Under the pieces are notes generated by a model. It made no database searches and had not been told where the DNA came from. It saw only the letters and a list, made by a program, of their open reading frames with translations. A stretch of 40,389 nt of DNA, from positions 1 through 40,389 of the forward strand of contig JAISCO010000322.1 of the NCBI GenBank assembly GCA_031265535.1. The letters run 5' to 3'. This document shows positions 3,815 to 31,933 of the stretch, in pieces. The position numbers and the translations under genes are program-made. Position 1 is the first letter of the stretch. Every line of letters begins with the position of its first letter. Source of the stretch: Spirochaetaceae bacterium (lineage in GTDB: Bacteria; Spirochaetota; Spirochaetia; Treponematales; Breznakiellaceae).

Positions 3815-3844
3815 ATAGAATACCTCCTTTGTAGAGTTATAGAA

Positions 3845-6373: not shown

Positions 6374-6387
6374 GTTAATTCCTCCTT

Positions 6388-7488
6388 TTAATCAATGAAC
6401 TTTGACTTCTTAAAGAGCCACAGTATAGGGTCCAATACGCGGTGCGGCTGAATGTCGTTCACCAGGGTATCTCTGGTTACCGGGGGCTTGCCAAAACTTG
6501 AAACGCCGAAAAAATAAAATTCCTTAAAGTGCGACTCCAGCATAGTGATGAACGCGTCTTCCCTGATTTCACAGAGCCAGTTGCGGATTTCGCCGTCTAC
6601 CTGCTCAATTTCGGTTGTATCAAGCTTACCGTTTCGAATGTTAAGGCTTTTGCTCTTTATAAGTGCGCGAGGCCCGAATGATCTGTGATTGATGATAGTG
6701 TCGAACTTTGTCAAAACGACGGCAACGGGGATTTCCAGCAACTGAGAGGCTCTTATCCCTCTTGCCGACTTGATATACGAAACCACGTTGTTGATGACGT
6801 CGGCGGCATTTTTCGTTTTGCCTGAAAATCCAGCGAGTGAATTCGTCATGACATCCGGGTCAACGACACCGCCCCTCCGTATGCCGGACAGCACGAGAGG
6901 GTCAATGACGAGGATGATTGCTTTCGAGGCTTCTATATACCGGCATACGGTCGATGAAGTATCGAGGTTTTCGTGATCTTCACCGGCGCCGTCAAAGATG
7001 GTAAATGTATAAACAGGTGTTTCATTCTTAGTCTTTCTCGCCAAATTGCTAATTTGCCATATCTGCGGCATATTTGCTCCTGATTGCGTACCTTCAGCAC
7101 GTGTATGGTCCTCATAGATACGCCTGTAGTTTCCATCCTGGTGGTCATGCGTCTCTTTGGTCTGGTCCGCTAAAGACAGCTTTAAGCCCGGTACCCCCCT
7201 TCCTAATTCATGCAGCATGACCGTGATGTAATTCGTCTTGCCGGAGTTAGACACGCCGACAATGCTGAAAGGCAGGTTTGGCGTTTCAAGAGATGTTTTG
7301 GGAATATCATTGAGGCAGCTTGGGCATCTGCGTACTTTAGCAATACGGCCGCACTTCCGGCATTTAATCGGCTCTCTCTCAAAAGCCTTTGGGGTCACTA
7401 TTCCTCCGCATCCATCTTCAGTACAGACATAAAGCACTTTGCTTTTGTCGTACTCCCGAATGCAGAATGGGCATGTAAATTTCGCCAT
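6388..7488 (-). CDS. double Zn-ribbon + P-loop GTPase (tandem paralogue 2)
   Basis: 366 aa. Cys pairs CPFC, C..GC, CRKC, CPSC. G1 GVSNSGKT, G3 FDGAGED, G4 LTKFD. First 22 aa and last ~40 aa are identical or near-identical to the neighbour at 7506-8594. Confidence 0.85.
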   Translation of the reverse strand: MAKFTCPFCIREYDKSKVLYVCTEDGCGGIVTPKAFEREPIKCRKCGRIAKVRRCPSCLNDIPKTSLETPNLPFSIVGVSNSGKTNYITVMLHELGRGVPGLKLSLADQTKETHDHQDGNYRRIYEDHTRAEGTQSGANMPQIWQISNLARKTKNETPVYTFTIFDGAGEDHENLDTSSTVCRYIEASKAIILVIDPLVLSGIRRGGVVDPDVMTNSLAGFSGKTKNAADVINNVVSYIKSARGIRASQLLEIPVAVVLTKFDTIINHRSFGPRALIKSKSLNIRNGKLDTTEIEQVDGEIRNWLCEIREDAFITMLESHFKEFYFFGVSSFGKPPVTRDTLVNDIQPHRVLDPILWLFKKSKFID

Positions 7489-7505
7489 TTTTTTCTCCTA
7501 TATTT

Positions 7506-8594
7506 TTAATCAATGAACTTTGACTTCTTAAAGAGCCATAGTATCGGGTCCAATACGCGGTGCGGACGAATGTCGTTCACCAGGGTATCTTTAGTTACCG
7601 GGGGCTTGCCAAAACTTGAAACGGCAAAGAAATAAAATTCTTTAAAATGTGATTCCAGTACGTTGATGAACGCGCTTTCCCCAATTTCACGGAGCCAGGT
7701 GCGAATTTCGCCGTCTACCTGCTCAATTTCGGTTGTATCCAGCTTGCCATTTCGAATAACACGGCTTTCTCTCTTTATAGTGGCCTGAGGCCCGAACGAC
7801 TTGTGATTGATGATAGTGTCGAACTTTGTCAAAACGACAGCAACGGGAATTTCCAGCAACTGAGAGACTCTTATCTCTCTCTCCGACTTGATATACGAAA
7901 CCACGTTGTTGATGACATCAGCGGTATTTTTCACTCCGTTTAAGCATCCGCTGCTTGAGTTCGCCATGACATCCGGGTCGACTACACCGCCCCTCCGTAT
8001 GCCGGACAGCACGAGAGGGTCAATGACTAGGATGATTGCTTTCGAAGCTTTGATATACCGACATTCAGTCGATGAAGTATCAAGGTTTTCATGATCCACG
8101 CCGGCGCCGTCAAAGATGGTAACTGTATAAGCAGATGCCATGCCTCTATGCTTTTTATTTAGATTCGTGACGCACCATATCTGCGGCATATTTGCTCCTG
8201 ATTGTGTACTTTCAGCACGGGTATGTTTCTCATAGATACGCTCGTAGTTTTCCCTCTGATGTTTATGTGTCTCAATGGTCAGGGGCTTCAAAAACAGGCC
8301 CAAGTCCGATGCCCTCCCCAATTCATGCAGCATAGCCGTGATATAACTCGTCTTGCCGGAGTTATCCACACCAACAATGCTGAAAGGCAGGTTGGGCGTT
8401 TCAAGAACCGCTTGGGGAACATAATTGCAGCAGAATGGGCATTCGCTAACAGCAACACGGCCGCACTTCCGGCACTTAATCGGCTCTCTCTCAAAAATTT
8501 TTGGAGTCGCTGTTTCTTTGCATTCAAGGCAGACATAAAGCACTTTGCTTTTGTCGTACTCCCGAATGCAGAATGGACATGTAAATTTCGCCAT
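7506..8594 (-). CDS. double Zn-ribbon + P-loop GTPase (tandem paralogue 1)
   Basis: 362 aa. Cys pairs CPFC, CLEC, CRKC, CPFCC. G1 GVDNSGKT, G3 FDGAGVD, G4 LTKFD. SD AGGAGA. Starts 9 nt after the stop of the upstream gene. Confidence 0.85.
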   Translation of the reverse strand: MAKFTCPFCIREYDKSKVLYVCLECKETATPKIFEREPIKCRKCGRVAVSECPFCCNYVPQAVLETPNLPFSIVGVDNSGKTSYITAMLHELGRASDLGLFLKPLTIETHKHQRENYERIYEKHTRAESTQSGANMPQIWCVTNLNKKHRGMASAYTVTIFDGAGVDHENLDTSSTECRYIKASKAIILVIDPLVLSGIRRGGVVDPDVMANSSSGCLNGVKNTADVINNVVSYIKSEREIRVSQLLEIPVAVVLTKFDTIINHKSFGPQATIKRESRVIRNGKLDTTEIEQVDGEIRTWLREIGESAFINVLESHFKEFYFFAVSSFGKPPVTKDTLVNDIRPHRVLDPILWLFKKSKFID

Positions 8595-8603: not shown

Positions 8604-11600
8604 CTATATCTTTCCTGTAAATCCTTTTGCCCAGCGAAGGATAAATTCCTCGCCGGGAACGGGAGCGGTTTCAAACAAAAAGAATTTTGTGTTTTTTAAC
8701 TGCCTGAGGGATAAATCCGTCCGCACATCATAGCTGCTGTTGCAGGTTTTTCGCGGCGTTTCCAGTTCGCCGCCCTGTATAGCCAGCACTTGTACCGCTT
8801 TAGGGTCATTATGGGATATCAAATGCTGGTCGTCCGCGCAAGCGCATAACACGAACCGGGGCGCTTGCGAGAAAGGACGGTTTCCGGCGGCCTCTATCGA
8901 CAACTTTATATCGCCCAAAAGGCTTTTACTGAGCTTCCAGAATACGTCTACCCTTAATGGACGGTCAAAGCGGCATGGTTTCGGGTCGGATACTATCTCT
9001 TTGCCGCCAAAATTGTAAATTGTGAAAAGGGATACATAATATGACGCTTCCGCGCGGGCGGTTTCCCTGTACAGTATCTCGCCGTTTTCCCGGTACGCCG
9101 CCAGCCCAATCCGGTGAATATCCTGCGCCGTGCCAATATCCTGCGCGGTCGGCCAGTGGTTTTGGGAAGCGCTGGTCCTGACCGAATAATAGAAACCGGT
9201 AACATTCGGAGGGATGACGCCGATTTTAAGGTGTAGTTCTATTGTGTATGCGGCTTCCCGCAAACCCGCGATAGCATCCTCGTGTAAGCTGGATGACGCC
9301 TTGTCAATCAAACAGGGTGAGTATGTATTGACCTCCTGACTGTTCTTGCTCGGCAGCCAGTTGCCGCCCGAATAGGCCAGAACCGTGATAGTATGGAAGT
9401 TGTTCGCGGGCAATTCAATGTCGCAGCTTCCGGCATCGGATTTCAATTCACGGACTTGCTTTCCGCCAACCAGTATACGCAGGTCAATTCCGCGCCGGTT
9501 TATATCCCATGAAACATTGTAGGTGTTTTCCTTAAGTTTTTTTACGGCAATTGCAAACGATTCGATTTTGAGCATCGGGGTAATAACAATATCTACCCCA
9601 CGACTGTGGGGTAGATTGGCATAATTGGCGCAGAGTTTATATGCATACGCAAGGCCGTACTGAACATTCGTATCCTCAAAGCTGCCGTGCGCCTCGCTGC
9701 TTAGCAGGGTTTCCTTCCCGCCCTGAGTCCGGCGGATAGTAACGCCCGCGCTGTTTTTCGGCGCGTTCCATGTAAGCCGAACAGTCATGTTCACCTGCTC
9801 GGCGCGCGCGTCGGTAACATCAGCAAGAAGGACATCGGTTTTTCCCGCGGCGGAAGAGAATACCCCGTACCTGACGGCAAAAACAGCATAGCTGTACCAC
9901 TGACCCGGCAAAATAGTTTTGTCGCGGTATGTGGTATCTTTGGTATTGTCAAGCAGAATTTCTCCGTCCATTTTGCTGACCGGTATTTCTTTACCCTGTT
10001 TCCTGACAAGCCGGCAGCTTACCCCCTGCTCCGGCGATGGCGTCCAGCCGATATTCGCGGCGCCGGCTAAACTGTCCATGCCGACTGAAAGGTTTTTGCA
10101 GCTTTCCGGCGGCGTTGATTGCAGAAAACTGACGGCGGGTTCAAAATCAACGCAATCCCGCAAAATCGCAACGCACTCGTCCGCCTTACCGGAGGATGAG
10201 AGTTTTCCGACATTCGCAAACCTTGTACGGGCCTGTGAAAGAGCGGTATTAATCTGCGCTTCAAAGACGGATACATTGAGCCCGGGGAAGCTGCCGGTAA
10301 TGACGGCAAGCGTTTCGGATGCTTTTTGGAACATTTTATCGGCAAGCAGCTTTCGCAGGTCGTTTACCGGCTTTTCATACCTCTTTTCTTCCGCGGAAAT
10401 ACGCGCCGCCAGTTCATCGGTCCTGCTCTTTTCTCCCGGATCGGCAGCCTGCGCCTGGTACAAGGAACTGCGCGCCAATTCAAAATCGCTCTTGCGAAGG
10501 GCCTGTTCCGCGGCGGCAAAGTATTTTGCAAACATTGCGGCGCTCGCGAACACAAACCCGCACTCAGGGCATCTATCCAGGGAAACAAGCGCCATCTTTT
10601 GGCACTTCCCGCACCGCTTATAGAGCGGTTTGCCGCAATTCGAACATTTATTTATGTTTTGCGCTTCCGCCGCGTCTGTAAATTCAATCGGGGCCTGACA
10701 GTGCGGGCATTTGACATGAAACATGGGCGTTACAGGAATATAAGGGTCATCCAGCAATTTGAGTTCATTGTTGTAAACCGCGACGGCTATTGTATTATCA
10801 CCGAATATATCAAATATTTGTTTGACGTATTTTTCAGCATATCTGGGATTTAACAGGTGTGACTTGTCAAATCCCTTCAGTGAATCAATAAGTTCCGCTA
10901 AATCCGTAGATTTATATTTTAGTAAAATCCCGTATGCGCTGCGTTTTTTTTCAGAGTCGAAGACATTGAATCTGCCATAAGTAGCCAGAGAACCGCACAA
11001 GTGCCTCCATTCATTCGCTTTGGGGTCGCCAAAATCCGCCGCGTATTTTTCACACAGGCTTTTTAACTCGGTGGTGGATTTATTACGATATTCATACACA
11101 TTTTCCGGCTCATCAGCCATGTATGCGAGAAAAGCATATAAATCCGTTACTTGTGATGTATCAGCAACATTCTTTTTATAATTACGCAGGTTTTCAAGAT
11201 CCTTGATGTGGTTTTTCCAATTCGTTGGAAGCAATGATTCTATTATTTTATAATAATTGAACTCTAACATCTCAAGTCCAAGCGCGGAAAAAACCTCTTC
11301 TATATGCGACTCGGATAACTTTGTTATTTGCTTATAGGTTCTTACCGTACCCTTTGTTATCCTGCTAGTCCCGCCTGCTTTTAAGGCCGCCGCTGTTTTT
11401 CTGAATTTTTTAATCTCCCTATCGGTATGAGCATTGGCCAGCCTTTCCAATTCATCAAAAAGCGGTTCTTTATTGGCGTCAAGCACAGAAGCAAGGCATT
11501 TCTTCTGCTCAGAAAATAAGACCTCCTCTTTATCACCCCTCGGCCCATTATTGAAAGATCCATCTAATTCCTTTTTTGCCTTTTCGATAGCGTCGAGAAT

Positions 11601-11713: not shown

Positions 11714-12829
11714 TCACTCCACGCCCCATATCCTGACGGTGTTATCCAATGACCCGGAGGCAATCCTGCGCCCATCGGGACTCCACGACACGGAAGCTAC
11801 AAAGCTGGTATGCCCCGTGAGCGCAAACAGTTCGCTCCCGCTCTCCGCGTCCCAGATCTTTATGGTTCTATCAGATGACCTGGAAGCTATCCTGCGCCCA
11901 TCGGGGCTCCATGCCACGGAAGAGTTTCCCTTATTGAGGGTTAGCAGTTCACGCCCATTCTCTGCGTCCCATATTTTGAAGGGGTCATTCTTATTATAAT
12001 ATGAACCGGAAGCTATTCTGCGCCCATCGGGGCTCCACGCCACGTAATCTACATAGCTGTTATGCCCCGTGAGTGTGCGCAGTTCACGCCAATTCTCCGC
12101 GTCCCATATCCTGACGGTGTTATCTCCTGAGCCGGAAGCTATCCTGCGCCCATCGGGGCTCCACCCCACGGAATATACCTTGTCGGTATGCCCCTTGAGG
12201 GTTAGCAGTTCACGCCAATTCTCCGCGTCCCATATTTTGATGGTGTTGTCCTCTGACCCGGAAGCTATCCTGCGCCCATCGGGACTCCACGCCACGGAAT
12301 CTACCTCCTTGAGTGTGCGCAGTTCACGCCCGCTTTCCGCATCCCATATCTTGACGGTCTTATCACGTGACTTGGAAGCTATCCTGCGCCCATCGGGGCT
12401 CCATGTCATGTAATATACAAAGCTGTGATGCCCCTTGAGTGTGCGTAGTTTACGCCCGCTCTCCGCGTCCCATATCTTGATGGGTTCTTTATACCTTGAC
12501 CCGGCGGAGGCAATCCTGCGCCTATCGGGAGTCCACGCCACGGAATCTACCTCCTTGGGGGTGCGCAGTTCACGCCCGCTCTCCGCGTCCCATATTTTGA
12601 TAGTCATATATGACTCGGAAGCTATCCTGCGCCCATCGGGGCTCCACACCACGTGATATACAAATCTGTTATGCCCCGTGAGTGTGCGCAGTTCACGCCC
12701 GCTCTCTGCATCCCATATCCTGACGGTGTTATCTCCTGAGCCGGAAGCTATCCTGCGCCCATCGGGGCTCCATGACATGGAACATACCTTGTCGGTATGC
12801 CCCTTGAGTACGCACAGTTCACGCCACCC
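11714..12829 (-). repeat. intragenic tandem array of ~126-bp WD40-coding repeats (9 units)
   Basis: The string 'gcgcccatcggggctccacgccacgga...cagttcacgcc(c/a)...tccgcgtcccatat' recurs with ~126-bp period. The same units recur in 14237-14866. Confidence 0.9.
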
Positions 12830-14140
12830 CTCCTTCCGCTTCCTGCTGGTTTCATCCTCCTCCCGCTTCCGCCTCTCTTTTGCGGAAATACGCGCCGCCA
12901 GTTCATCGGTTTTGCTCTTTTTGCCCGGATCGGCAGCCTGCGCATCGGACAAATAAAGGCGTGCCAATTCAAAATGCCCTTCGAGAAATGCCCGTTCTGC
13001 GGTAGCGAAGTATTTTTCAAACGCTACGGCGCTCTCCTCCCGCTTGGCTTCATCCTCCTCCCGCTTCCGTCTGGCATCCTCCTCCCGCTTCTGTCTGGGT
13101 TCCTCCTCGAAGATCGGCTCGGGTATACGAAGCTCCGGTTCCGGCATTGTGTGGCTCGGCTCCTTTTTTGCCGGGATATAAAACTCGTCTTTAAACCCTG
13201 CTTCCTTGTTATAGATAGCGAGCGAGACCTCATAATCCCCAAAGACGGCCGCGATTTCTTTTATACATCCCTCGGCAAATTTGGGTTCCAACAAATGGTG
13301 CATGGAAAAGGATTTCATGGTAGAGAACAACTCCGTCAGAGACGGAGTTTTATATTTCAGGTATGCTTCATAGGCTTGGCGGTGATCTTCCGAGTCGAAT
13401 ACATAAAGCTTGCCGTACGTAGCCAGTGAAGAGCAGAGATGTCCAAATTTATCGGTTCGAGCAGAGTACTTTACGGCAAAACCATCAAACAGGCTTTTCA
13501 GTGCGGATCTTGATTTACTTCTATACACCGCCGCGTTTTCCGGTTCGCCGGCCATGTATGCGGCAAGGTCATACAAATTTTTCACCTGCTTAAGGGCAGC
13601 CTCATTCACGTTTGATTTTTGGTCTTTAAAATTCTGAAAAGCCTCGAGAGGTTTCGCATACGCTTTATCCGCGTTGGTTGGAAACCTGGGATATTTTTTA
13701 ATCAGATCATCGGTGGAGCTTACTGTAAATCCGGCGGCACGGAAAACATCTTCCACATTTTTCTTTGATAATCCCCTCTCTTTTTGATGACCACGAATAG
13801 CCCTATCGGTAATTACATGGGAACCTGACTGTTTGAGCCGCGAAACGAACGCCCTTAGTTTCTCGATTTCTTTTTTTACTTTATCTTTTGCCAGTTCATC
13901 ATAAGCGGGAGTGAGTTTATCATCATTACTAATGATAGAGTCTTTTGATCCCTTTTTTATGATTTTGTCCAAAAAAGACTGTTTTCCCGTGATTTTATCG
14001 TACTCCCATTGCGGCATATCATTGGTAGGATGACCAATCTCTTTTTTTGCCTTTTCGATAGCGCCGGTAACCTTCTGCGCCGCCTTTTCCGGCGGGTCAA
14101 AAGGCAGGCGTGTCAAATCAAAGAAATCATAGTCAGTCAT
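11714..14140 (-). CDS. shared N-terminal module + charged linker + TPR-like hairpin + 9 WD40 repeats
   Basis: 808 aa. N-terminus MTDYDFFDLTRLPFDPPEKAAQK. Nine units of the form GHxxxVxxVxWSPDGRRIASGSxDxT(V/I)(R/K)IWDAE(S/N)GRELRTL(K/T). Confidence 0.9.
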   Translation of the reverse strand: MTDYDFFDLTRLPFDPPEKAAQKVTGAIEKAKKEIGHPTNDMPQWEYDKITGKQSFLDKIIKKGSKDSIISNDDKLTPAYDELAKDKVKKEIEKLRAFVSRLKQSGSHVITDRAIRGHQKERGLSKKNVEDVFRAAGFTVSSTDDLIKKYPRFPTNADKAYAKPLEAFQNFKDQKSNVNEAALKQVKNLYDLAAYMAGEPENAAVYRSKSRSALKSLFDGFAVKYSARTDKFGHLCSSLATYGKLYVFDSEDHRQAYEAYLKYKTPSLTELFSTMKSFSMHHLLEPKFAEGCIKEIAAVFGDYEVSLAIYNKEAGFKDEFYIPAKKEPSHTMPEPELRIPEPIFEEEPRQKREEDARRKREEDEAKREESAVAFEKYFATAERAFLEGHFELARLYLSDAQAADPGKKSKTDELAARISAKERRKREEDETSRKRKEGWRELCVLKGHTDKVCSMSWSPDGRRIASGSGDNTVRIWDAESGRELRTLTGHNRFVYHVVWSPDGRRIASESYMTIKIWDAESGRELRTPKEVDSVAWTPDRRRIASAGSRYKEPIKIWDAESGRKLRTLKGHHSFVYYMTWSPDGRRIASKSRDKTVKIWDAESGRELRTLKEVDSVAWSPDGRRIASGSEDNTIKIWDAENWRELLTLKGHTDKVYSVGWSPDGRRIASGSGDNTVRIWDAENWRELRTLTGHNSYVDYVAWSPDGRRIASGSYYNKNDPFKIWDAENGRELLTLNKGNSSVAWSPDGRRIASRSSDRTIKIWDAESGSELFALTGHTSFVASVSWSPDGRRIASGSLDNTVRIWGVE

Positions 14141-14236
14141 GAAATGTCCTCCATATCAATTATCCCAGGTTTTGGGGCTGTATTGGGAGACGTCTGTTTG
14201 AGGACATTAAGCATGGTGGTGTTCATGGTTGCCATT

Positions 14237-14866
14237 TTACTCCGCGCCCCATATCCTGACGGTTTTATCATTTGACCCGGAAGCTATCCTGCGCCCATCG
14301 GGGCTCCACGCCACGGACAGTACATCGTAGGTATGCCCCTTGAGCGTGTGCAGTTCACGCCCGCTCTCCGCGTCCCATATTTTGATGGTTTTATCCGATG
14401 ACCCGGAAGCTATCCTGCACCCGTCGGGGCTCCACGCCACGGAGTATATGTAGTCGGAATCCTTGAGCGTGTGTAGTTCACGCCCACTCTCCACATCCCA
14501 TATCCTGACGGTCATATCATTTGACCCGGAAGCTATCCTGCGCCCATCGGGGCTCCACGCCACGGACAGTACATCGTAGGTATGCCCCTTGAGCGTGTGC
14601 AGTTCACGCCCGCTCTCCGCGTCCCATATCCTGACGGTTTCATCCCGTGACCCGGAAGCTATCCTGTGCCCGTCGGGACTCCACGCCACGGATTCTACAA
14701 TGTGATGCCCCGTGAGCGTGTGCAGTTCACGCCCGTTCTCCGCATCCCATATCCTGACGGTGTCATCCCCTGCCCCTGAGGCAATCTTGAGCCCATCGGG
14801 GCTCCACGCCACGGAATATACATAGAAGAAATGCCCCTTGAGCGCACGCAGTTCACGCCAAAGCTC
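14237..14866 (-). repeat. intragenic tandem array of ~126-bp WD40-coding repeats (5 units)
   Basis: Same repeat family as 11714-12829. Units 3 and 5 are almost identical at the DNA level. Confidence 0.9.
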
Positions 14867-15844
14867 TTCCTTTTTCGCCGGGATATAAAGCTCACCTTGT
14901 AATCCCGCTTCCTTGTTATAGATATTTACCGATACCATATAATAGCAGCCAAAGATGGCCGATATTTTATTTATAAACGCTTCGGCCAATCCGGGGTCTA
15001 ACAAATCCTGCTTGTTGGAGGAAAAGGACTTCATCTGAGCGAATAACTGTGTCAGCAACGGATTTTTATATTTCAGGTATGCTTCATAGGCTTGGCGGTG
15101 ATCTTCTGTGTCGAATATATATGTCTTGCCGTAAGTAGCCAGAGAAGAGCATAGATGCCCTGCCGGATCATTGTCATGCTGCCCGGATAACTTACCGGCG
15201 AATCCGTCAAATAGGGCTTTTAGTTCGGGAGTTGTTTTCTTTTTATACTCCGCGGTTTTTTCCGGCTCACCGGCCATACACGCGGCAAAGGCATATAAAT
15301 CTTCCGCCGGCGTAAAGTCAGTCCATTTTTTATTCTCAGGTTTTCGCAAAGCCTCAAGTTCCTTATACGCTATATCCGCGTTTTTTGGAAACTTTGGGTA
15401 GTGCTTGTTGAACAGTTCATCTCTGGGGATTTCTGTAAATCCGGCATTACGAAAAACCTCTTTCACATGGCCTTCGGACAGCAATGTCCTTTTGCTATGG
15501 CGGCGAATCGTACCATCAGTAAACTTAGGGGAAGGCAGCAGCAAAACGACCTCCCTTAGTTTCTCGATTTCTTTTTTTACTTTATCTTCCGCCAGCTTGC
15601 TATAAGCGGGAGTGAGTTTATCATCATTACTAATGATAGAGTCTTTTGATCCCTTTTTTATAATGGTGTCCAAAAAAGACTGTTTTCCCGTGATTTCATC
15701 GCGTTCCAATTGCTGCGTGGCAGAGGAAAGAGCAGCAACAAGTTCTTTTTTTGACTTTTCGACAGCGCCGGTAACCTTCTGCGCCGCCTTTTCCGGCGGG
15801 TCAAAGGGCAAGTGTGTCAAATCAAAGAAATCATAGTCAGTCAT
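14237..15844 (-). CDS. shared N-terminal module + 5 WD40 repeats
   Basis: 535 aa. The N-terminal ~322 aa are almost identical to those of the next gene upstream (15874-17973). They are followed by five near-identical WD40 units. Confidence 0.9.
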   Translation of the reverse strand: MTDYDFFDLTHLPFDPPEKAAQKVTGAVEKSKKELVAALSSATQQLERDEITGKQSFLDTIIKKGSKDSIISNDDKLTPAYSKLAEDKVKKEIEKLREVVLLLPSPKFTDGTIRRHSKRTLLSEGHVKEVFRNAGFTEIPRDELFNKHYPKFPKNADIAYKELEALRKPENKKWTDFTPAEDLYAFAACMAGEPEKTAEYKKKTTPELKALFDGFAGKLSGQHDNDPAGHLCSSLATYGKTYIFDTEDHRQAYEAYLKYKNPLLTQLFAQMKSFSSNKQDLLDPGLAEAFINKISAIFGCYYMVSVNIYNKEAGLQGELYIPAKKEELWRELRALKGHFFYVYSVAWSPDGLKIASGAGDDTVRIWDAENGRELHTLTGHHIVESVAWSPDGHRIASGSRDETVRIWDAESGRELHTLKGHTYDVLSVAWSPDGRRIASGSNDMTVRIWDVESGRELHTLKDSDYIYSVAWSPDGCRIASGSSDKTIKIWDAESGRELHTLKGHTYDVLSVAWSPDGRRIASGSNDKTVRIWGAE

Positions 15845-15873: not shown

Positions 15874-17973
15874 TTATGTGTCGTCTGCGGTTAGATACAT
15901 CCATCTACTAACAAAGTAAACAAAGATACCAATGCTCCAACCAATCAAGGCATCAATGATAGCACCGCCGATACCACCGAAGAAGAAACCCCTGGATCCG
16001 CGAAGAGAGCCGATAAAGCTGCTTATAACCATACAAGCGCAGAACCCTAATTCGCCACCAAAGAGTTCCATTGCGAAATTATTAATGATGTAGTAGATGA
16101 GAACAGAAATAGCGCCGATGATGGTACCGATAATTGCGCAGACGACAACACCATTGCTGCCTTGAAAGATGGCACTACCGATGGCATCGACAATAATACT
16201 GGCGATGGCAATGACAAGTATTATTTTCTTTTTTCGTTCTCTTTTGAATTCCTCACTCAGCTTCCACCAGACTTCCTCCTCCTGTTCCCGCCTCTCTTCT
16301 TCTTCCCGCTTCCGTCTGGGTTCCTCCTCTTGTTTCCGTCTCTCTTCCGCAGAAATACGCGCCGCCAGTTCATCGGTTTTGCTCTTTTCACCCGGATCGG
16401 CGTCCAGTGCTTCGAACAAATAATTGCGTGCCAATTCAAAATACTCTTCGAGAAGTGCCTGTTCTGCGGCAGCAAAGTATTTTGCAAACGCTGCGGCGCT
16501 CTCTTCCTGCTTCCGTCTAGCGTCCTCTTCCTGCTTACGTATAGCGTCCTCTTCCTGCTTACGTCTAGCGTCCTCTTCCTGTTTCCGCCTCTCTTCTGCG
16601 GAAATACGCGCCGCCAGTTCATCGATCTTGATCTTTTTGCCCGGATCGGCAGCCTGCGCATCGGACAAAGAACGGCGCGCCAATTCAAAATCGCTCTTGC
16701 TAAGGGCCTGTTCCGCGGCAGCGAAGTATTTTTCAAACGTTGCGGCGCTCTCCTCTCGCTTTCTGTCATCCTCCCGCTTCCGTCTCTCTTCCGCAGAAAT
16801 ACGCGCTGCCAGTTCATCAGTCTTGATCTTTTTGCCCGGATCGGCAGCCTGCGCCTGGGACAAATAAATGCGTGCCAATTCAAAATCGCTCTTGCGAAGG
16901 GCCTGTTCCGCGGCAGCGAAGTATTTTTCAAACGCGGCGGTACTCTCCTCCTGCTTCCGTCTCGTCTCTTCTTCCCGCTTCCGCCTCTCCTCCTCCTCAA
17001 ATCTCGCCGGGATATAAAGCTCACCTTGTAATCCCGCTTCCTTGTTATAGATATTTACCGATACCATATAATCGCAGCCAAAGATGGCCGAGATTTTATT
17101 TATATACACTTCGGCCAATTCGCGGTCTAACAAATCCTGCTTGCTGGAGGAATAGGATTTCATCTGAGCGAATAACTCTGTCAGCGACGGATTTTTATAT
17201 TTCAGGTGTGCTTCATAGCCCCGGCGGTGATCTTCTGTGTCGAATACATAGGTCTTGCCGTAAGTAGCCAGAGAAGAGCAGAGATGCCCTGCCGGATCCT
17301 TATCATGCGGCCCGGATAACTTACCGGCGAATCCGTCAAACAGGCTTTTTAGTGCGGATGTTGATTTACCGCGATACTCCGCGGCTTTTTCCGGCTCACC
17401 GGCCATGCACGCGGCAAAGGCATATAAATCTTCCGCCGCCGTAAAGTCAGTCCATTTTTTATTTTCAGGATTCCGTAACGCCTCAAGTTCCTTATACGCT
17501 ATATCCGCGTTTTTTGGAAACTTTGGGTAGTGCTTGTTGAACAGTTCATCTCTGGGGATTTCTGTAAATCCGGCATTGCGAAAAACCTCTTTTACATGGC
17601 CTTCGGACAGCATTGTCCTTTTGCTATGGCGGCGAATCGTACCATCAGTAAACTTATGGGAAGGCAGCAGCAAAACGACCGCCCTTAGTTTCTCGATTTC
17701 TTTTTTTACTTTATCTTCCGCCAGCTTGCTATAAGCGGGAGTGAGTTTATCATCATTACCAATGATAGAGTCTTTTGATCCCTTTTTTATGATGGTATCC
17801 AAAAAAGACTGTTTTCCCGTGATTTCATCATGCTCCAATTGCTGCGTGGCAGAGGAAAGAGCAGCAACAAGTTCTTTTTTTGACTTTTCGATAGCGCCGG
17901 TAACCTTCTGCGCCGCCTGTTCCGGCGGGTCAAAAGGCAAGTGTGTCAAATCAAAGAAATCGTAGTCAGTCAT
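15874..17973 (-). CDS. shared N-terminal module + 3 TPR-like hairpin cassettes in E/R/K-rich linkers + C-terminal glycine-zipper multi-TM domain
   Basis: 699 aa. Three copies of 'FEKYFAAAEQAL.KSDFELAR..L..AQAADPGKK.K.DELAARISAEERRK.EE'. The last ~119 aa are hydrophobic and Gly-rich (IIGTIIGAISVLIYY...FFFGGIGGAIIDALIGWSIGIFVYF). Confidence 0.9.
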   Translation of the reverse strand: MTDYDFFDLTHLPFDPPEQAAQKVTGAIEKSKKELVAALSSATQQLEHDEITGKQSFLDTIIKKGSKDSIIGNDDKLTPAYSKLAEDKVKKEIEKLRAVVLLLPSHKFTDGTIRRHSKRTMLSEGHVKEVFRNAGFTEIPRDELFNKHYPKFPKNADIAYKELEALRNPENKKWTDFTAAEDLYAFAACMAGEPEKAAEYRGKSTSALKSLFDGFAGKLSGPHDKDPAGHLCSSLATYGKTYVFDTEDHRRGYEAHLKYKNPSLTELFAQMKSYSSSKQDLLDRELAEVYINKISAIFGCDYMVSVNIYNKEAGLQGELYIPARFEEEERRKREEETRRKQEESTAAFEKYFAAAEQALRKSDFELARIYLSQAQAADPGKKIKTDELAARISAEERRKREDDRKREESAATFEKYFAAAEQALSKSDFELARRSLSDAQAADPGKKIKIDELAARISAEERRKQEEDARRKQEEDAIRKQEEDARRKQEESAAAFAKYFAAAEQALLEEYFELARNYLFEALDADPGEKSKTDELAARISAEERRKQEEEPRRKREEEERREQEEEVWWKLSEEFKRERKKKIILVIAIASIIVDAIGSAIFQGSNGVVVCAIIGTIIGAISVLIYYIINNFAMELFGGELGFCACMVISSFIGSLRGSRGFFFGGIGGAIIDALIGWSIGIFVYFVSRWMYLTADDT
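16349..16945 (-). repeat. three ~150-bp copies of a TPR-like-hairpin coding cassette
   Basis: Copies lie at about 16349-16500, 16598-16749 and 16792-16945. Single copies of the same cassette lie at about 10390-10550 and 12880-13033 in two other genes. Confidence 0.85.
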
Positions 17974-17988: not shown

Positions 17989-20172
17989 TCAATCATCCCA
18001 GGTTTCCGTGTCCGCGGCGCTTCGATCAAGGCCGCTTTGCGCGGCAGCGCCTAAACTTTGCGCAATCGTTCCAAAGGCGCTCGTCAGTTCCGACTGCGAA
18101 ACAAGCAGCGCATTGGCGTCTTTGGATGATATATCCTGTAAAAACTTCTTGTCGGCTTTTCCAAAGCCGATGGCCGCCGTTTCGATCTCCGCGTGGTTGC
18201 ACTGTTTTGCCGCCGCGATTGCCGCTTCCTGGCAGCGCCAAACGCCGTCTGCCAGGATAACGGCAAAACGCCGCCCGTCCTCGTCCGCAAGCATGTTCCT
18301 GATGTCGGTAAACGGGTGTGCGCTGTTGCAATACCCGGTCTGCCCGCTGGTAATGGACTGAATGGCCCGTATGCAGGCATCCTCATTGTCGGTGAGTCCC
18401 GTTATCTCGGCTGTCCTGTCGGATACGGCAAGTATGCCGACCCGGGTGAATGAAAAATCCATATTGCGAATAAAATCGCACATCGCGTTCTGGGCGGCTC
18501 TTAGCGGGTCTCCATCCATACTGCCCGAAACATCAACAGCCATGACGACATTCAACGGTTCGGGTTTAAGGAACTCCGCCGGGTCAATGGGCAGCGCGTA
18601 TTTCGACATATCCTCCGGCACCGGTTCTTTGCGAATGGGCAAGTCGCCGCAACCGCTTTCCTGCCGCGCCTGCACCTGGATAATCCCGTTGTTGTCGTAA
18701 CTGTACTGGACCTTGATTATAGTTTTCCCTTTTTGTCCTTTTACGTGCTGAATGCCGGAGACAAGGTATTTGTACGGGATCTGGTTGTCGAGCGGGTTTT
18801 CCTTGTCGCCCTGTAAAACATAAACCTCCATCTCGTTAGCGCCGCGAGCGGAAGTGTAAAACGCAAATGCTTTGGCAACGCGAACCGGGCGCGGGTGGTT
18901 GGCGGGGATTATAATATCGTTAATATACCCGGCGCCGTCCGTACTGACGGCTATAATGCCCATCGCGTGAGCGGTCGTCTCCCTTAGTTTCAGAAGGCCG
19001 ACGCTAGAGAGCTTTTGCGAAGGTTTAACGCTCACCTGAGAACTTAAGCCGCTGTGGGCCGTAACTTTTTTCCCGTCGCTCATCACCTGTATAGCGAGCG
19101 CGGCATAAGGTTCGTTTTCTTTGGTGGACTGTATCGCGGCGCCCAAAGCGACAGCTTCATCGGGATTTACATGGGTTATGGGCTTTTTACCGAACATATC
19201 CAGAATGTACCGTGAAACCTGCGGCATACGGGTAGAACCCCCGACCAGCAGCACATCCGTTACGTCACGAATGTTTAATCCGGCGTCGGAGAGGACGGTG
19301 TTGCAAAGCGATACCGTCCTGTCAAGCAGGTCCCTTGTGTTTTCTTCAAACTCGCCGCGATTGACCATAACGCTCGCGGAACCAAAATCAGGGATGGAAG
19401 CGCTGACCTTTACGGACTGCATGGCGCTTAATTGCTTTTTTACGCCTTCAGCCATGCCGCGGAACATGGCTTTTATACCGGCGCCGGAGTGTGTATCAAT
19501 ACCTGTTTCCGCCGCAAATTTATCCATCAGCAGTTGTTCTATGCGGTCGTCCCAATCACGGCCGCCAAGTAAATGATTGCCCCGCGTTGTGATAGTCGAT
19601 AAATCGCCGTTAGGCCCCATCCGGGTTAAGGTTACGTCAAAGGTTCCGCCGCCTAGGTCGTAAACAAGAATATTCGCGTTCTCGCGCCAGTTGTTCAAGC
19701 CGTATGCCATCGCCGCCGCGTTAGGCTCGTCAATAATTTTCCTCACCTTTATACCCGCGGCATTTGCGGCCCGGACGGTCGCTTCGCGCTCGGCCGAGTA
19801 GAAGTAAGCGGGAACAGTAATTACCGCGTCCTTTATGGTATCGCCCAGTTCGGCTTCCGCGTCTTCCTTTAAGCGCCTAAGCAGCAGAGCGGATAAGTCC
19901 TCGGCGGTATAGGATTTGTCATCTATAAAGCAGTACGCCCCGGACTTTCCCATACCGCGTTTGAAGGTGGCCGCGCAGCCGGATTGTCCCGCGTTAAAGG
20001 CGCTCTCCGCCTCGGAACCGAAAATGGCCCGTCCGTTTACAAACTGGATAACGGACGGGGTTATGTTTTTGCCTTCGCGGTTGGGGATGATTTTCGGCAG
20101 CTTTGTTTGAGGGTCAATGTACGCCACCGCCGAAAAGGTCGTCCCCAGATCAATACCTACTGAAACAGCCAA
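17989..20172 (-). CDS. Hsp70 (NBD + SBD-beta) fused to a C-terminal vWA domain
   Basis: 727 aa. TTG start 8 nt after GGAGG. Hsp70 motifs GIDLGTTFS, IDEPNAAAMAYG, YDLGGGTFDVTL, LLVGGSTRMPQV. C-terminal MIDAS-type 'VVMAVDVSGSMDG' (DVSGS at 18520-18534). Confidence 0.85.
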   Translation of the reverse strand: MAVSVGIDLGTTFSAVAYIDPQTKLPKIIPNREGKNITPSVIQFVNGRAIFGSEAESAFNAGQSGCAATFKRGMGKSGAYCFIDDKSYTAEDLSALLLRRLKEDAEAELGDTIKDAVITVPAYFYSAEREATVRAANAAGIKVRKIIDEPNAAAMAYGLNNWRENANILVYDLGGGTFDVTLTRMGPNGDLSTITTRGNHLLGGRDWDDRIEQLLMDKFAAETGIDTHSGAGIKAMFRGMAEGVKKQLSAMQSVKVSASIPDFGSASVMVNRGEFEENTRDLLDRTVSLCNTVLSDAGLNIRDVTDVLLVGGSTRMPQVSRYILDMFGKKPITHVNPDEAVALGAAIQSTKENEPYAALAIQVMSDGKKVTAHSGLSSQVSVKPSQKLSSVGLLKLRETTAHAMGIIAVSTDGAGYINDIIIPANHPRPVRVAKAFAFYTSARGANEMEVYVLQGDKENPLDNQIPYKYLVSGIQHVKGQKGKTIIKVQYSYDNNGIIQVQARQESGCGDLPIRKEPVPEDMSKYALPIDPAEFLKPEPLNVVMAVDVSGSMDGDPLRAAQNAMCDFIRNMDFSFTRVGILAVSDRTAEITGLTDNEDACIRAIQSITSGQTGYCNSAHPFTDIRNMLADEDGRRFAVILADGVWRCQEAAIAAAKQCNHAEIETAAIGFGKADKKFLQDISSKDANALLVSQSELTSAFGTIAQSLGAAAQSGLDRSAADTETWDD

Positions 20173-21869: not shown

Positions 21870-21887
21870 AATAATAATTCTCCTTAC

Positions 21888-24437: not shown

Positions 24438-24455
24438 AATAATGTTTCTCCTTGC

Positions 24456-25235
24456 TTATTTTTCCGCCGGATTACCGGCGCTGGTACCCTCGAAACGATA
24501 AATCTCTACGCGTTCTTTTACCAGCGAACGGTTTTCAATATAGAAGCCCGCGCTGCGGCTTGATGCGACCGTATCATGCAAATCGGGATTCTCCACCGGG
24601 ATTAGCTTAACGATCTGGCTATGCCTTGTATTGCGCTTGTCCCCCGGTTTGCTTTTCAGTTTATGAACACCGTTAGCCTCAAGGATCTGAAGAATTCCAA
24701 AAAATATACCGCTAATCCACTTTTTCCCCTTGTTGTCCGCAATCTTCTCAATAAAGGGCTCGTTGTCGCTGTACAGTCCGGCAAGCTCGCGGAGTATTTC
24801 GTCGAATACAAGCCCCCTGTCCCTCTCGTGGTACTTATCCAACTCTCCCTGCATGAACCTCAAGCGTTTGTCGAATTCATTTTGGTAGAGCTTATGCACC
24901 TCCCGGATTTCGCCCGTTGTCTTTACAGAGGCTTCGGCGATGATTTTAAGCTCCCGTTCAAGACGCTCTATGCCTGTCTGCACGGTCTGTAATCCATCCG
25001 ATAAGTTTTCTTGATTTGCGTCCGGGGATTTCTCTTCCGCGCTTTTCACGGCGATTTCCGGCGCGTCAGAGCATTGCCCGCATGCAGCCGCCCCCGTGGC
25101 GCTTTCCGGCACGTACGGGGATTTCTCCTCCGCGCTTTCCACGGCGATTTCCGGTGCGTCAGGGCATTGCCCGCATGCAGCCGCCTCCGTGGCGGTTTCC
25201 TCAAGTTCATTTTCCGTAATTTTTGATTCTTCCAT
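24456..25235 (-). CDS. GrpE-like nucleotide-exchange factor with a repeated Cys-containing acidic N-terminus
   Basis: A coiled-coil segment is followed by 'GIFFGILQILEANGVHKLKSKPGDKRNTRHSQIV...VASSRSAGFYIENRSLVKERVEIY', which follows the GrpE C-terminal pattern (GV..i...G..f....H.av......V.....GY...R.lr.a.V.V). Start chosen at MEESK (GGAGG 8 nt upstream). ATG at 25250 or the track start at 25307 are alternatives; 25307 would overlap the upstream gene. Confidence 0.65.
   Translation of the reverse strand: MEESKITENELEETATEAAACGQCPDAPEIAVESAEEKSPYVPESATGAAACGQCSDAPEIAVKSAEEKSPDANQENLSDGLQTVQTGIERLERELKIIAEASVKTTGEIREVHKLYQNEFDKRLRFMQGELDKYHERDRGLVFDEILRELAGLYSDNEPFIEKIADNKGKKWISGIFFGILQILEANGVHKLKSKPGDKRNTRHSQIVKLIPVENPDLHDTVASSRSAGFYIENRSLVKERVEIYRFEGTSAGNPAEK
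25024..25194 (-). repeat. 2 x 93-bp tandem repeat inside the GrpE-like gene
   Basis: Units start at 25024 and 25117. They encode AT(E/G)AAACGQC(P/S)DAPEIAV(E/K)SAEEKSP twice. Confidence 0.85.
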
Positions 25236-25264
25236 AACAAATGCCTCCATAAAAATATTTCCCA

Positions 25265-26650: not shown

Positions 26651-26653
26651 AAT

Positions 26654-27964: not shown

Positions 27965-28047
27965 GAAAACACCACTCCACCGGTGCCTGTCAACCCCGGA
28001 CCTGATTCTGTACTGCGAAGATTTTCTTTAAATCCCACCGCGCTCCC

Positions 28048-28224: not shown

Positions 28225-28231
28225 AAATTAT

Positions 28232-31930: not shown

Positions 31931-31933
31931 ATC

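Follow-up and report, generated by a model that had tools for sequence, protein, structure and literature searches.

Two WD40 repeat arrays with a diversified predicted binding face in an Hsp70-linked operon of a Spirochaetaceae bacterium

Two genes of a Spirochaetaceae bacterium, here called A and B, end in arrays of nine and five WD40 units that differ from each other almost only at three positions of the predicted binding face, so the arrays are most likely swappable target-recognition modules. The genes belong to a family of paralogues within an Hsp70/GTPase operon, of which relatives have one copy, and they therefore look like accessory sensor paralogues. Our preferred reading, which we hold to be reasonably probable, is that A and B are accessory target-recognition (sensor or adaptor) subunits of an expanded Hsp70-GrpE-vWA/DO-GTPase conflict operon. 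The whole stretch of DNA analysed, 40,389 bp, is referred to below as the window.

Genes, repeat units and shared domains

Gene A (11714-14140, on the minus strand like every feature given below) encodes 808 aa comprising an N-domain, an acidic and proline linker, one helical module of about 60 aa and nine WD40 units (ORF; Pfam WD40, E=4e-90; N-domain HMM score 486). In gene B (14237-15844, 535 aa) five units are joined straight to the N-domain (ORF; Pfam WD40, E=2e-65; AF2 model). The nine and five units counted in the initial annotation are thus present. The array of A (11717-12829, aa 438-808) consists of units of 38-45 aa each, A1 (12704-12829), A2 (12581-12703), A3 (12461-12580), A4 (12335-12460), A5 (12221-12334), A6 (12095-12220), A7 (11960-12094), A8 (11843-11959) and A9 (11717-11842), and that of B (14240-14863, aa 328-535) of B1 (14738-14863), B2 (14615-14737), B3 (14489-14614), B4 (14366-14488) and B5 (14240-14365). 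TRF found periods of 126/252 and 123/249 in the arrays, with scores of 797-914. Array A opens with the strand-d "velcro" segment WRELCVL and closes with RIWGVE and the stop codon; array B opens with WRELRAL and closes with RIWGAE and the stop. The motifs TDKVCSM, NRFVYHV, HSFVYYM, TYDVLSV and FFYVYSV, quoted earlier, all occur in the arrays, and the irregular units that had been pointed out are real: EVDSVAW without GH is found in A3 and A5, ESYMTIKIW in A2 and GSYYNKNDPFKIW in A7. Five units (A2, A3, A5, A8 and B4) are degenerate, lacking GH or the b-c Asp; A2 lacks the Asp, and A3 lacks GH and has a proline in strand d.

The N-domain is a rare all-α domain of about 320 aa with five copies in the window, one of them fused to an Hsp70. 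In A it covers aa 1-325 (13166-14140), with YIP at its end (alignment; family profile search), and in B aa 1-322 (14879-15844), modelled as 17 helices with pLDDT 88-98 and having zero Pfam and PDB sequence matches. Its start is J-like only weakly and the HPD motif is absent. The fifth copy is aa 511-828 of a Pfam-recognised Hsp70 (21888-24437), 57% identical to the N-domain of B by BLASTP (E=9e-111), and this type of fusion is also found in 3 of 32 non-canonical relatives. Paralogue P4 (15874-17973, 699 aa) carries the N-domain, three helical modules and a Gly/Ile-rich hydrophobic C-terminus; its N-domain shares 93% DNA identity with that of B, 5' flank included. Paralogue P1 (8604-11669, 1021 aa) has the N-domain, a double zinc ribbon (Pfam DZR), one helical module and a β-rich region, and is the syntenically conserved canonical form, with orthologues of about 1025 aa in related loci L001-L003 and L005-L017. 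The helical module of A (12866-13045, AFEKYFATAERAF...ELAARISAKERRK) recurs in P4, in three copies, and in P1, in one, with blastn identities of 80-90% to 16298-16998 and 10387-10545. Modules are shuffled among the paralogues.

Nearly all of the 17 related loci have a single N-domain gene of about 1025 aa, so A, B and P4, each with its C-terminus exchanged, are additional paralogues from a lineage-specific expansion. The only other organism with an N-domain-WD40 fusion is that of locus L004, with arrays of 2 and at least 3 units; other relatives carry MORN, biotinyl/lipoyl, zinc-ribbon or transmembrane modules in place of WD40.

Operon context

The operon contains three Hsp70s, a GrpE-like gene, a vWA domain and three DO-GTPase-like genes. 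Besides the N-domain fusion, there is an Hsp70 paralogue with a Pfam match to the nucleotide-binding domain only (20190-21869, aa 6-360) and, directly upstream of the paralogue array, an Hsp70-vWA fusion (17989-20172; Pfam HSP70 5e-102, VWA 1.5e-16). The GrpE-like protein (24456-25307) scores 4.7e-5 and 23.6 bits with Pfam GrpE, under the 25.8-bit cutoff, and is syntenic in L001-L003. It is followed in the coordinates by a conserved 461-aa protein and a TraD/TrwB/HerA-like ATPase (25265-27964, the ATPase at 26654-27964). The downstream switch genes (2228-8594) are the three DO-GTPase-like genes (7506-8594, 6388-7488 and 2228-3814; Pfam DO-GTPase2 26.9-33 bits against a 27-bit cutoff) and a gene for an 842-aa protein (3845-6373), which by synteny occupies the position of GAP1 and has zero Pfam matches.

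By gene content this matches the HSP70/GrpE theme of the GAP1-N2-type DO-GTPase conflict systems described by Kaur, Burroughs, Iyer and Aravind (eLife 2020). HSP70, a second HSP70 lacking the substrate-binding domain, GrpE, vWA and DO-GTPase-like genes recur in both, as do highly variable modules joined to constant ones and a long protein whose β-rich region evolves rapidly. That canonical long protein is predicted there to be the sensor of invaders, and in A and B the WD40 arrays hold the place of its zinc ribbon and β-rich region. The systems differ in that FNIII proteins are fused to DnaJ or TPR in the described ones whereas the window has the helical domain of about 320 aa, and in that GAP1 is undetected by Pfam in the window. 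In the text of that paper WD40 is named once, with reference to APAF-1, and the sections consulted do not describe WD40-bearing paralogues, tandem expansion of the N-domain or Hsp70-N-domain fusions. PADLOC holds no model for this operon type, the defence role of which is a prediction.

Fold of the arrays and blade number

The AF2 model of array A (pLDDT 89, pTM 0.84) has 32 β-strands, that is eight blades, and its best Foldseek TM-scores were to eight-bladed WD40s (ODA16 0.78-0.79; Tako8 TMt 0.86). The degenerate stretch at 12482-12610 (aa 511-553), made up of strand c of A2 and strands d, a and b of A3, is extruded from the model at low confidence (query residues 86-128, pLDDT 50-73, zero β-strands). 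The nine-unit array thus most likely closes into a propeller of eight blades and leaves one degenerate unit as a loop outside it, as in Tako9, which by experiment folds as eight blades and one unfolded blade (PMC6805158). Array B was modelled with moderate confidence (pLDDT 62-89), its first d strand not being β, and is not confidently closed by itself. It probably pairs up or is completed within a complex. The statement that the counts are atypical for a seven-bladed propeller is therefore softened for the nine units.

Structural matches of array B include 2ymu, 5yzv and 7bid, at 45-48% identity, and 6r60, which consists of two five-bladed WRAP fragments (TMt 0.72, 48% identity). When natural-sequence WD40 fragments have 2, 3, 4 or 5 identical blades, they assemble as tetramers, trimers or dimers that reach 8-9 blades in total (PMC6805158). 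The five-unit array of B and the two-unit array of L004 resemble such fragments that fold only as oligomers; A, B and the L004 proteins differ from these and from Tako8 and Tako9 in that they occur naturally at full length, have diversified their top faces and carry a further domain. Sub-propeller fragments such as these two might then be gathered, through oligomerisation driven by the N-domain and Hsp70, into homo- or hetero-oligomers of 8-10 blades with combinatorial top faces. All paralogues have the same N-domain and so could have one hub in common. We regard this as possible but rather less than likely: hetero-oligomers never formed in the fragment experiments (PMC6805158), the helix at aa 327-338 of B was modelled with pLDDT <50, and array A is predicted to close unaided.

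Position of the variability and selection

The 14 units were aligned in 45 columns. Entropy was highest in columns 32 (2.70), 14 (2.51) and 16 (2.50), followed by 37, 13, 12 and 6. According to the primary-sequence rule of Wu et al. 2012 (PMC3419727), columns 14, 16 and 32 are R1-2, R1 and D-1, the published top-face hotspots, and the chance of exactly these three leading 42 columns, over which the estimate was taken, is 1/11480. Variability is much higher in the top-side loops (d-a and b-c, mean entropy 1.61) than in the bottom-side loops (a-b and c-d, 0.49; Mann-Whitney p=0.004). Columns 13, 14, 32 and 37 are also variable among the five units of the independent locus L004. This confirms the earlier observation that the differences cluster at the predicted top face.

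High entropy at the top face would be expected alone, since these positions are the least constrained in every WD40; R1-2, R1 and D-1 are the least conserved repeat positions generally (PMC3419727; PMC5587647). The arrays could accordingly be structural platforms for assembly or oligomerisation of the Hsp70/GTPase complex, whose top loops drift neutrally, with neither specific ligands nor selection for diversity; the several degenerate units would suit this, and a ligand of the arrays is still only a proposal. Neutral drift, however, predicts hotspot replacement close to synonymous divergence. In the closest pairs of units pN at the six variable codons was 0.6-0.9, which is saturated, against a scaffold pS of 0.04-0.17, an excess of 4-10 times (Fisher p 3e-6 to 4e-3) exemplified by B2-B5 (pN 0.79, pS 0.07, p=2e-5) and B2-B3 (p=3e-6). 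The pooled dN/dS was 1.9 at the six hot columns and 0.44 elsewhere. These are pairwise counts on few, non-independent and partly saturated sites. In addition, the hot positions are rich in Y, D, N and S (12 Tyr and 5 Phe among 76 residues), as is typical for binding surfaces, and the arrays stand where the canonical paralogue has its predicted sensor region. We thus find neutral drift unlikely, and the comparison of units supports a diversification that appears focused on the ligand-binding face beyond neutral expectation. Scaffold codons are uniform among units, the Ile codon ATA included, and the uniformity could be partly due to gene conversion instead of recent origin.

Similarity between units and the assembly

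Units share 47-93% of their residues (mean 67%) and 70-96% of their nucleotides (mean 79%), and only the pair B3/B5 reaches 96%. "Near-identical", as they had been called, is too strong, and highly repetitive is the better description. Their similarities are intermixed across the two genes. This, the modules shuffled among the paralogues and the unit counts of L004 (2, and 3 or more) support a rapid reshuffling of repeats only indirectly; no alleles or close strains of A and B were found among 5.8 billion proteins. Of the earlier view of the arrays as rapidly reshuffling sensors, the diversified top face is supported, and a function as sensors is compatible with the operon.

The counts of nine and five, and of two in L004, could also be artefacts of short-read metagenome assembly by collapse, expansion or chimerism, the true genes having 7 or 14 blades. 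The window is a complete metagenomic contig, B3 and B5 have an exact tract of 115 nt in common, the two units on the L004 contig of 2.3 kb hardly differ, nine and five add up to 14, and the repeats of fungal HNWD genes defeat Illumina assemblies (PMC11761791). Against this, the units are 4-30% apart in DNA and exact matches extend to no more than 62 nt within A and 37 nt across the two genes, so ordinary reads or k-mers can resolve them. Moreover, both ORFs are intact and in frame although unit lengths vary, A and B have homologous 3' flanks, and both arrays open with the velcro strand and close with the distinctive terminal unit IWG[AV][ED] before the stop, as do both complete C-termini of L004. 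An artefact is consequently improbable, and the warning of a likely mis-assembly is weakened, with the units individually distinct and no exact shared tract above 115 nt.

Relation to known repetitive WD40 proteins

Arrays recently amplified from one blade are known in bacteria from the WRAP or Npun_R6612-type propellers of cyanobacterial STAND proteins and from the "Highly-Repetitive WD40" class (Hu et al. 2017, PMC5587647). [quoted passage not shown] A and B differ in their N-domain and in having 5 and 9 units (2 in L004) instead of 7 or 14. Their scaffold dS is about 0.33, against zero synonymous changes in WRAP, and their units fall slightly below the 0.7 identity cutoff of the class.

The fungal HNWD NLRs (HET-E, HET-D and the NWD family of Podospora) likewise end in a WD40 array whose scaffold is unusually uniform. 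They also have hypervariable residues under diversifying selection on the predicted interaction face, repeat numbers unfit for one seven-bladed propeller and unit exchange between paralogous arrays (PMC11761791). Fungal HNWD repeats are, however, 80-100% identical (PMC11761791), and concerted evolution in A and B is weaker or older because their repeat identity is lower. Where HNWD proteins have a NACHT NTPase and a HET or other death domain, A and B have the Hsp70-associated all-α domain, and they sit in a bacterial operon. That they are bona fide bacterial NLR/STAND receptors of HET-E/NWD type, the arrays being the sensor of an NTPase-driven oligomerising receptor, is scarcely credible, although the conserved scaffold and variable top face behave the same and the closest database WD arrays carry TIR, nSTAND or kinase modules (Pfam lists), since Pfam and a motif search detected no NACHT, NB-ARC, other P-loop domain or Walker A motif in either protein, the N-domain is unmatched in Pfam and PDB and the repeats are too dissimilar. 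The missing STAND NTPase rules out membership of that family, and the analogy with HET-E/NWD drawn initially holds for function only.

Proposed function

If A and B are accessory recognition subunits, the constant N-domain would plug into the Hsp70 machinery of the operon, through a putative contact for which the gene fusions are the evidence. The C-terminal propeller or fragment would present a Tyr/Asp/Asn-rich top face varying blade by blade at the d-a loop, the start of strand a and the b-c turn, and this face would recognise a cue, protein or peptide, that most plausibly derives from an invader. Binding may be relayed via the N-domain to the ATP cycle of Hsp70/GrpE and the GTPase switch, and from there to the output of the system. 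For A and B, ligand binding, signal transfer, a part in immunity and the oligomeric state are inferred. The arrays would have arisen by recent amplification and exchange of one unit of about 42 aa, with homogenisation or purifying selection keeping the scaffold uniform and selection favouring diversity where residues make contact. Repetitive bacterial WD40s with a variable top face have already been published; the Hsp70-linked architecture of these arrays appears to be new.

The N-domain paralogues and their WD40 arrays

Four adjacent open reading frames on the minus strand share the start MTDYDFFDLT(H/R)LPFDPPE(K/Q)AAQK, namely P1 (8604-11669, 1021 aa), A (11714-14140, 808 aa), B (14237-15844, 535 aa) and P4 (15874-17973, 699 aa). 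All four begin with a common domain of about 320 aa (the N-domain), which has YIP at its end. A and B end in WD40 arrays on the same strand, of nine units in A (A1-A9; nt 11717-12829, aa 438-808) and five in B (B1-B5; nt 14240-14863, aa 328-535), with units of 38-45 aa. Pfam WD40 (PF00400) matched A in 8 stretches (E=4.2e-90) and B in 5 (E=1.8e-65), and Tandem Repeats Finder gave periods of 126/252 and 123/249 for the arrays. The DH(S/T)W tetrad and the GH...WD landmarks are present in 10 of the 14 units. GH is absent or substituted in A3, A5, A8 and B4, and the Asp of the b-c turn is absent in A2 and substituted in A3 and A7. The sequence strings quoted in the initial annotation were all found, including ESYMTIKIW (in A2) and GSYYNKNDPFKIW (in A7), and the EVDSVAW units described there as lacking GH are A3 and A5.

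Blade number and fold

The unit counts of nine and five had been described initially as atypical of a closed seven-bladed propeller. The counts hold, and the structural models refine the rest of the statement. The AF2 model of A (aa 426-808, built on a 78-sequence alignment; pLDDT 89, pTM 0.84) contains 32 β-strands instead of 36, that is eight blades with the N-terminal d strand included. The four missing strands (c of A2 and d, a and b of A3) belong to the sole low-confidence stretch of the model, at model residues 86-128 (nt 12482-12610). Foldseek matched the models of both A and B to solved WD40 propellers with a probability of 1.00. The best matches for A were eight-bladed, ODA16 (TMq 0.78-0.79), Rsa4/NLE1 (0.75-0.78) and Tako8 (TMt 0.86-0.87), and the seven-bladed WDR5 and PkwA gave poorer superpositions (TMq 0.57-0.63). 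Because of the 32 strands and the better superposition on eight-bladed propellers, the nine units of A most likely close into a propeller of eight blades, one degenerate unit being looped out. Tako9, a designed protein, has eight blades and leaves its surplus unit out (PMC6805158), and the same exclusion of one unit in nine is predicted for A.

In the AF2 model of full-length B the five units comprise 19 strands (pLDDT 62-89) and the N-terminal velcro strand is unformed; a closed five-bladed WD40 propeller is not supported by this prediction. The Foldseek matches of B include 6r60, in which two five-bladed WRAP fragments form an asymmetric dimer (TMt 0.72, 48% identity). WD40 fragments of 2, 3, 4 and 5 identical blades are reported to fold by assembling into tetramers, trimers and dimers that have 8-9 blades (PMC6805158), and we infer by analogy that oligomerisation would be a realistic route for the folding of B. 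Reading 9+5=14 as two seven-bladed propellers split between the genes was discarded as numerology; hetero-oligomers, moreover, were absent in those experiments (PMC6805158). Obligate composite propellers are considered rather unlikely; they would be compatible with a sensor function, and are held to be slightly more probable than the neutral scaffold considered below.

Variable positions and selection

In the 45-column alignment of the units entropy was highest at column 32 (2.70 bits), followed by columns 14 (2.51), 16 (2.50), 37 (2.47), 13, 12 and 6. According to the sequence rule of Wu et al. 2012, hotspots lie at (V/L/I)-R1-R2-(V/L/I) and at the residue preceding the tetrad Asp (PMC3419727), and its application to the A/B alignment makes column 14 R1-2, column 16 R1 and column 32 D-1. 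The three most variable columns are exactly these three positions (chance 1/11480), which are experimentally supported top-face hotspots of WD40 proteins (PMC3419727). The trait "conserved scaffold + diverse predicted hotspot sites" of Hu et al. 2017 is also present in A and B. Among the 76 residues at the hot positions Tyr (12), Asp (10), Asn (9), Ser (7) and Phe (5) are frequent. Moreover, the five units of L004, a metagenomic contig from another organism with N-domain-WD40 genes, vary at columns 13, 14, 32 and 37, as in A and B. The topology of WD40 repeats puts the d-a loop and the b-c turn on one face of the propeller and the a-b and c-d loops on the opposite one. With strand boundaries taken from DSSP of the structural model, and faces assigned by topology and the published rule rather than by measured geometry, the mean entropy was 1.61 bits in the d-a/b-c loops and 0.49 bits in the a-b/c-d loops (Mann-Whitney p=0.004). 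Per-position entropy and propeller mapping therefore agree with the original proposal that the differences cluster at predicted top-face positions.

Top-face hotspot positions are variable in WD40 proteins generally (PMC3419727, PMC5587647), so that entropy alone is weak proof and synonymous change in the scaffold provides the informative comparison. In the closest unit pairs 4-17% of the scaffold synonymous sites differ, and nonsynonymous differences at the six hot codons reach 60-90% (B2-B5, pS 0.07 vs pN 0.79; A2-A5, 0.08 vs 0.72; B2-B3, 0.11 vs 0.89). Fisher tests of hotspot pN against scaffold pS in these pairs gave p values from 3e-6 to 4e-3, the counts being small, the pairs non-independent, the hot sites near-saturated and the statistics pairwise rather than tree-based. 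The dN/dS comparison suggested in the initial annotation points the same way, with a pooled Nei-Gojobori ratio of 1.9 in the hot columns and 0.44 elsewhere, again from pairwise counts and not from a tree. Scaffold codon usage is the same in all 14 units (for example ATA for Ile and CCC for Pro). The pattern in A and B appears to be that of a homogenised or recently amplified scaffold in which diversity of the contact residues has been retained or favoured, as reported for HET-E/NWD. Arrays serving as a neutral structural scaffold would be consistent with the hotspot variability found in WD40 proteins at large; considered together with the hot-codon counts, such a role is regarded as unlikely.

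Scaffold pS between the genes A and B (mean 0.26, closest pairs 0.12-0.13) is somewhat below that of their N-domains (0.37) and unit similarities intermix across the two arrays, which is modest evidence that units may have been exchanged between them. Mutagenesis of the DGR type was rejected, since no reverse transcriptase was found by Pfam in the 25 scanned window ORFs of at least 150 aa and the codons of the hot columns have no adenine-specific pattern.

Similarity of the units and reliability of the assembly

Pairwise identity among the 14 units is 47-93% for protein (mean 67%) and 70-96% for DNA (mean 79%), with mean DNA identities of 78% within A and 81% within B; B3/B5 is the only pair at 96%. 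The strong repetition described initially is thus real, and "near-identical" was an overstatement. Hu et al. 2017 define proteins as "highly repetitive" at an internal identity of at least 0.7 and as "moderately repetitive" at 0.4-0.7 (PMC5587647). Judged by mean pairwise unit identity (0.67) rather than by their contiguous-repeat criterion, the arrays lie below the first cutoff and at the top of the second band.

Exact tracts common to different units reach at most 62 nt in A, 115 nt in B and 37 nt between A and B. The initial annotation considered the arrays likely to be mis-assembled from short reads; the divergence of the units and the shortness of the exact tracts lower this risk, and the arrays are probably divergent enough for short-read assembly, in contrast to the fungal HNWD repeats. 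That the repeat counts are artefacts of assembly is given a lower weight than the sensor interpretation set out below. Exact-protein look-ups for A and B returned no record, so a second assembly of the arrays is lacking. When the N-domains of B and P0144 (a metagenomic family member) served as queries, word-indexed searches returned 4 and 2 proteins, respectively, and no alleles, and a search with the WD array gave thousands of generic WD40 proteins (best identity 55-63%), useless for allele comparison. As no identical or close protein or contig is on record for A or B, the arrays available for comparison are paralogues and orthologues of 2, at least 3, 5 and 9 units.

Operon context

Upstream of the four paralogues, on the minus strand, there are a Hsp70-vWA fusion (17989-20172), a Hsp70 of 559 aa (20190-21869) whose Pfam match is restricted to the nucleotide-binding domain (aa 6-360), and a third Hsp70 (21888-24437) with a complete fifth N-domain at its C-terminus (aa 511-828). 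A GrpE-like gene (Pfam 23.6 bits vs a cutoff of 25.8 bits), a 461-aa conserved protein and a TraD/HerA-like ATPase are also found upstream. Within its coding region the GrpE-like gene has a tandem repeat of 93 nt (2 copies, 92% match) at 25019-25200. The TraD/TrwB/HerA-like ATPase (26654-27964, minus) is 72-80% identical in related loci, as a conserved operon member and not a chance conjugation neighbour.

Downstream there are three DO-GTPase-like genes on the minus strand (7506-8594, 6388-7488 and 2228-3814), with Pfam DO-GTPase2 scores of 26.9, 30.1 and 33.0 bits; against a cutoff of 27 bits these matches are marginal yet consistent and syntenic. The first two are adjacent and both match one gene in related loci (63-71% identity), and represent a further local duplication beside those of the Hsp70 and N-domain genes. 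An 842-aa protein (3845-6373, minus) at the position of GAP1 is syntenically conserved, with 38-61% identity in related loci. Neither this protein nor the 461-aa one (25265-26650) had a match in Pfam (E up to 10), NCBIfam or PADLOC. GAP1 (GAP1-N2, -M, -C) was thus not recognised beside the GTPase by Pfam, and the 842-aa protein may be a divergent GAP1.

Kaur et al. 2020 predicted GAP1-N2 DO-GTPase conflict systems with a HSP70/GrpE theme and proposed that invaders are sensed by a protein whose FNIII repeats evolve rapidly (PMC7159879). That theme has one or two DO-GTPase genes, and HSP70 and GrpE often accompanied by a second HSP70 without the peptide-binding domain; in the present operon there are three DO-GTPase-like genes and three HSP70. 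The FNIII protein of that theme is fused to DnaJ or TPR. P1 has a β-rich C-terminal region, and a double zinc ribbon is the only domain that Pfam reports for the protein. The gene content matches the HSP70/GrpE theme, though incompletely: GAP1 is not recognised by Pfam, the DO-GTPase and GrpE scores are at or below the curated cutoffs, and PADLOC has no model for this type of operon. A connection with the CoCoNuT systems, which contain Hsp70, was rejected as their architecture is unrelated.

Elsewhere in the window, GC content drops to 0.35-0.42 at 28000-33000, and the genes between about 30.8 kb and the window end (including 33104-39457) encode several TPR proteins of small size, together with a β-helix and a TM2-domain protein. 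A tandem repeat of 48 nt is located at 38152-38318. Perfect short tandem repeats occur in intergenic-looking sequence, AATTATG x4.9 (31934-31967), GCCAAGACA x4.1 (40048-40084), a 12-mer x2.2 (40110-40135) and AATGAGG x4.6 (40162-40193), and might be slippage-prone tracts.

The N-domain family and the shuffling of modules

AF2 predicts the N-domain as all-α, with about 17 helices and pLDDT 88-98. No meaningful match was obtained in Pfam (E up to 10), NCBIfam, PADLOC or a PDB profile search, and WD40 matches dominate the Foldseek list of the full B model. Comparison by hhalign with a hand-made J-domain alignment matched its first 30 residues to the start of the J-domain, at a probability of 38% and over these 30 residues only, and the HPD motif, searched as HP[DE] in the first 120 aa, occurs in just 1 of 98 family members. 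Its identification as a J-domain was rejected on these grounds, "J-like" being a lead only.

A profile search found the N-domain in 171 clusters among 1.84 billion representatives, mostly of 1000-1050 aa like P1. Sources of the 17 related loci are a Ruminococcaceae isolate, MAGs of Oscillospiraceae and Holophagales, and metagenomes from the gut and elsewhere. In nearly all of them a single P1-type N-domain gene lies between Hsp70-vWA and DO-GTPase, so that A, B and P4 are additional, lineage-specific paralogues whose zinc-ribbon/β-rich region has given way to other C-termini. Genome and metagenome scans detected no WD units in these 17 loci. Among 152 family representatives scanned, only A, B and P0144 have WD40 partners. 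P0144 is encoded on L004 (1-2267, JGI sample 3300042593), a 2.3-kb contig with three tandem N-domain-WD40 paralogues, one with at least three units, a complete middle gene with just 2 and one truncated by the contig end. Complete arrays of L004 end in IWG(A/V)(E/D) and a stop codon, as do A and B, the ending in L004 being RIWGAD and stop.

Fusions of Hsp70 to the N-domain were found in 3 of 32 non-canonical relatives and fn3 in 1 of the 32. Other relatives carry MORN repeats, a biotinyl/lipoyl domain, additional zinc ribbons or TM segments. These fusions tie the N-domain to Hsp70, and the varied partners demonstrate that its C-terminal partner can be exchanged. The N-domains of B and P4 share 93% DNA identity, 5' flanks included. 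In addition, a helical module of about 60 aa (AAFEKYFAAAEQAL...ELAR...AQAADPGKK.KTDELAARISAEERRK) is present on the minus strand three times in P4 (16298-16998) and once each in A (12830-13090) and P1 (10387-10545), with 80-90% DNA identity, and modules are apparently being shuffled among the paralogues. The ATPase domain of the third Hsp70 is 88% identical in DNA to that of its neighbour (20805-21912 vs 23379-24480), which points to a recent duplication, combined with fusion to an N-domain; this N-domain copy is 57% identical to that of B. The C-terminus of P4 (15874-16200, minus) is Gly/Ile/Ala-rich and hydrophobic and resembles glycine-zipper TM segments, and the metagenomic relative P0003 has a similar tail. 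The tail of P4 could be a membrane-acting output of the system.

Comparison with NLRs and significance

The initial annotation likened the arrays to those of the fungal HET-E/NWD family. The likeness holds for the diversification of the top face; it does not extend to NLR identity or to the degree of repeat identity. No NACHT/NB-ARC STAND NTPase was found in A or B: scans of Pfam, NCBIfam and PADLOC returned no P-loop family, a Walker A motif is absent, and the N-domain is predicted as all-α. Since the STAND NTPase is a defining feature, A and B are not NLRs. Fungal HNWD repeats are 80-100% identical within a gene (PMC11761791), whereas the units of A and B show 70-96% identity in DNA and a mean of 67% in protein. 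Diversifying selection on the interaction face of HNWD is matched in A and B by pairwise counts, not tree-based ones. A and B behave like the WD40 sensor of an NLR without being one, and the best-supported interpretation is that they are accessory recognition subunits. The constant N-domain would dock onto Hsp70 and carry the WD40 propeller or fragment, the top face, diversified blade by blade, would bind one or more protein cues, and the signal would then go to Hsp70/GrpE and the GTPase switch.

A more far-reaching proposal, to which we attach little probability, is that the N-domain defines a hitherto unrecognised, STAND-independent class of bacterial immune receptors. The Hsp70 ATPase cycle would replace the NLR NTPase as the switch, sensor cartridges (FNIII-like, WD40, MORN and others) would be swappable on a single adaptor, and in the WD40 versions natural fragments of 2 and 5 blades would come together on an Hsp70 hub, forming composite propellers of 8-10 blades whose recognition faces are combinatorial. 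If true, such composite propellers would be the natural counterpart of oligomeric propellers hitherto only made in vitro.

Repetitive bacterial WD40 proteins with variable top faces and a link to immunity have been published (PMC5587647, PMC6805158, PMC9218822), and arrays of this kind are already known to act as sensors, in fungi within NLRs and in bacteria within STAND, TIR and kinase proteins, so the behaviour of the A and B repeats is not new. The new element appears to be their partner, a rare and unnamed helical domain, confidently folded in the models, which bears the arrays. Gene neighbourhoods place this domain in the Hsp70/GrpE/vWA/DO-GTPase operon, and in some cases it is itself fused to Hsp70. 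The Hsp70-associated adaptor, its tandem cartridge-swapping paralogues and the 2-, 5- and 9-unit arrays appear to be undescribed; Kaur et al. 2020 mention WD40 once, concerning APAF-1 (PMC7159879). If A and B are indeed sensors, the locus would be a natural experiment in which one adaptor has four adjacent C-terminal cartridges, usable for testing target recognition by the predicted Hsp70/GTPase conflict systems, and the arrays of 2, 5 and 9 units would be natural tests of sub-propeller oligomers or surplus blades.
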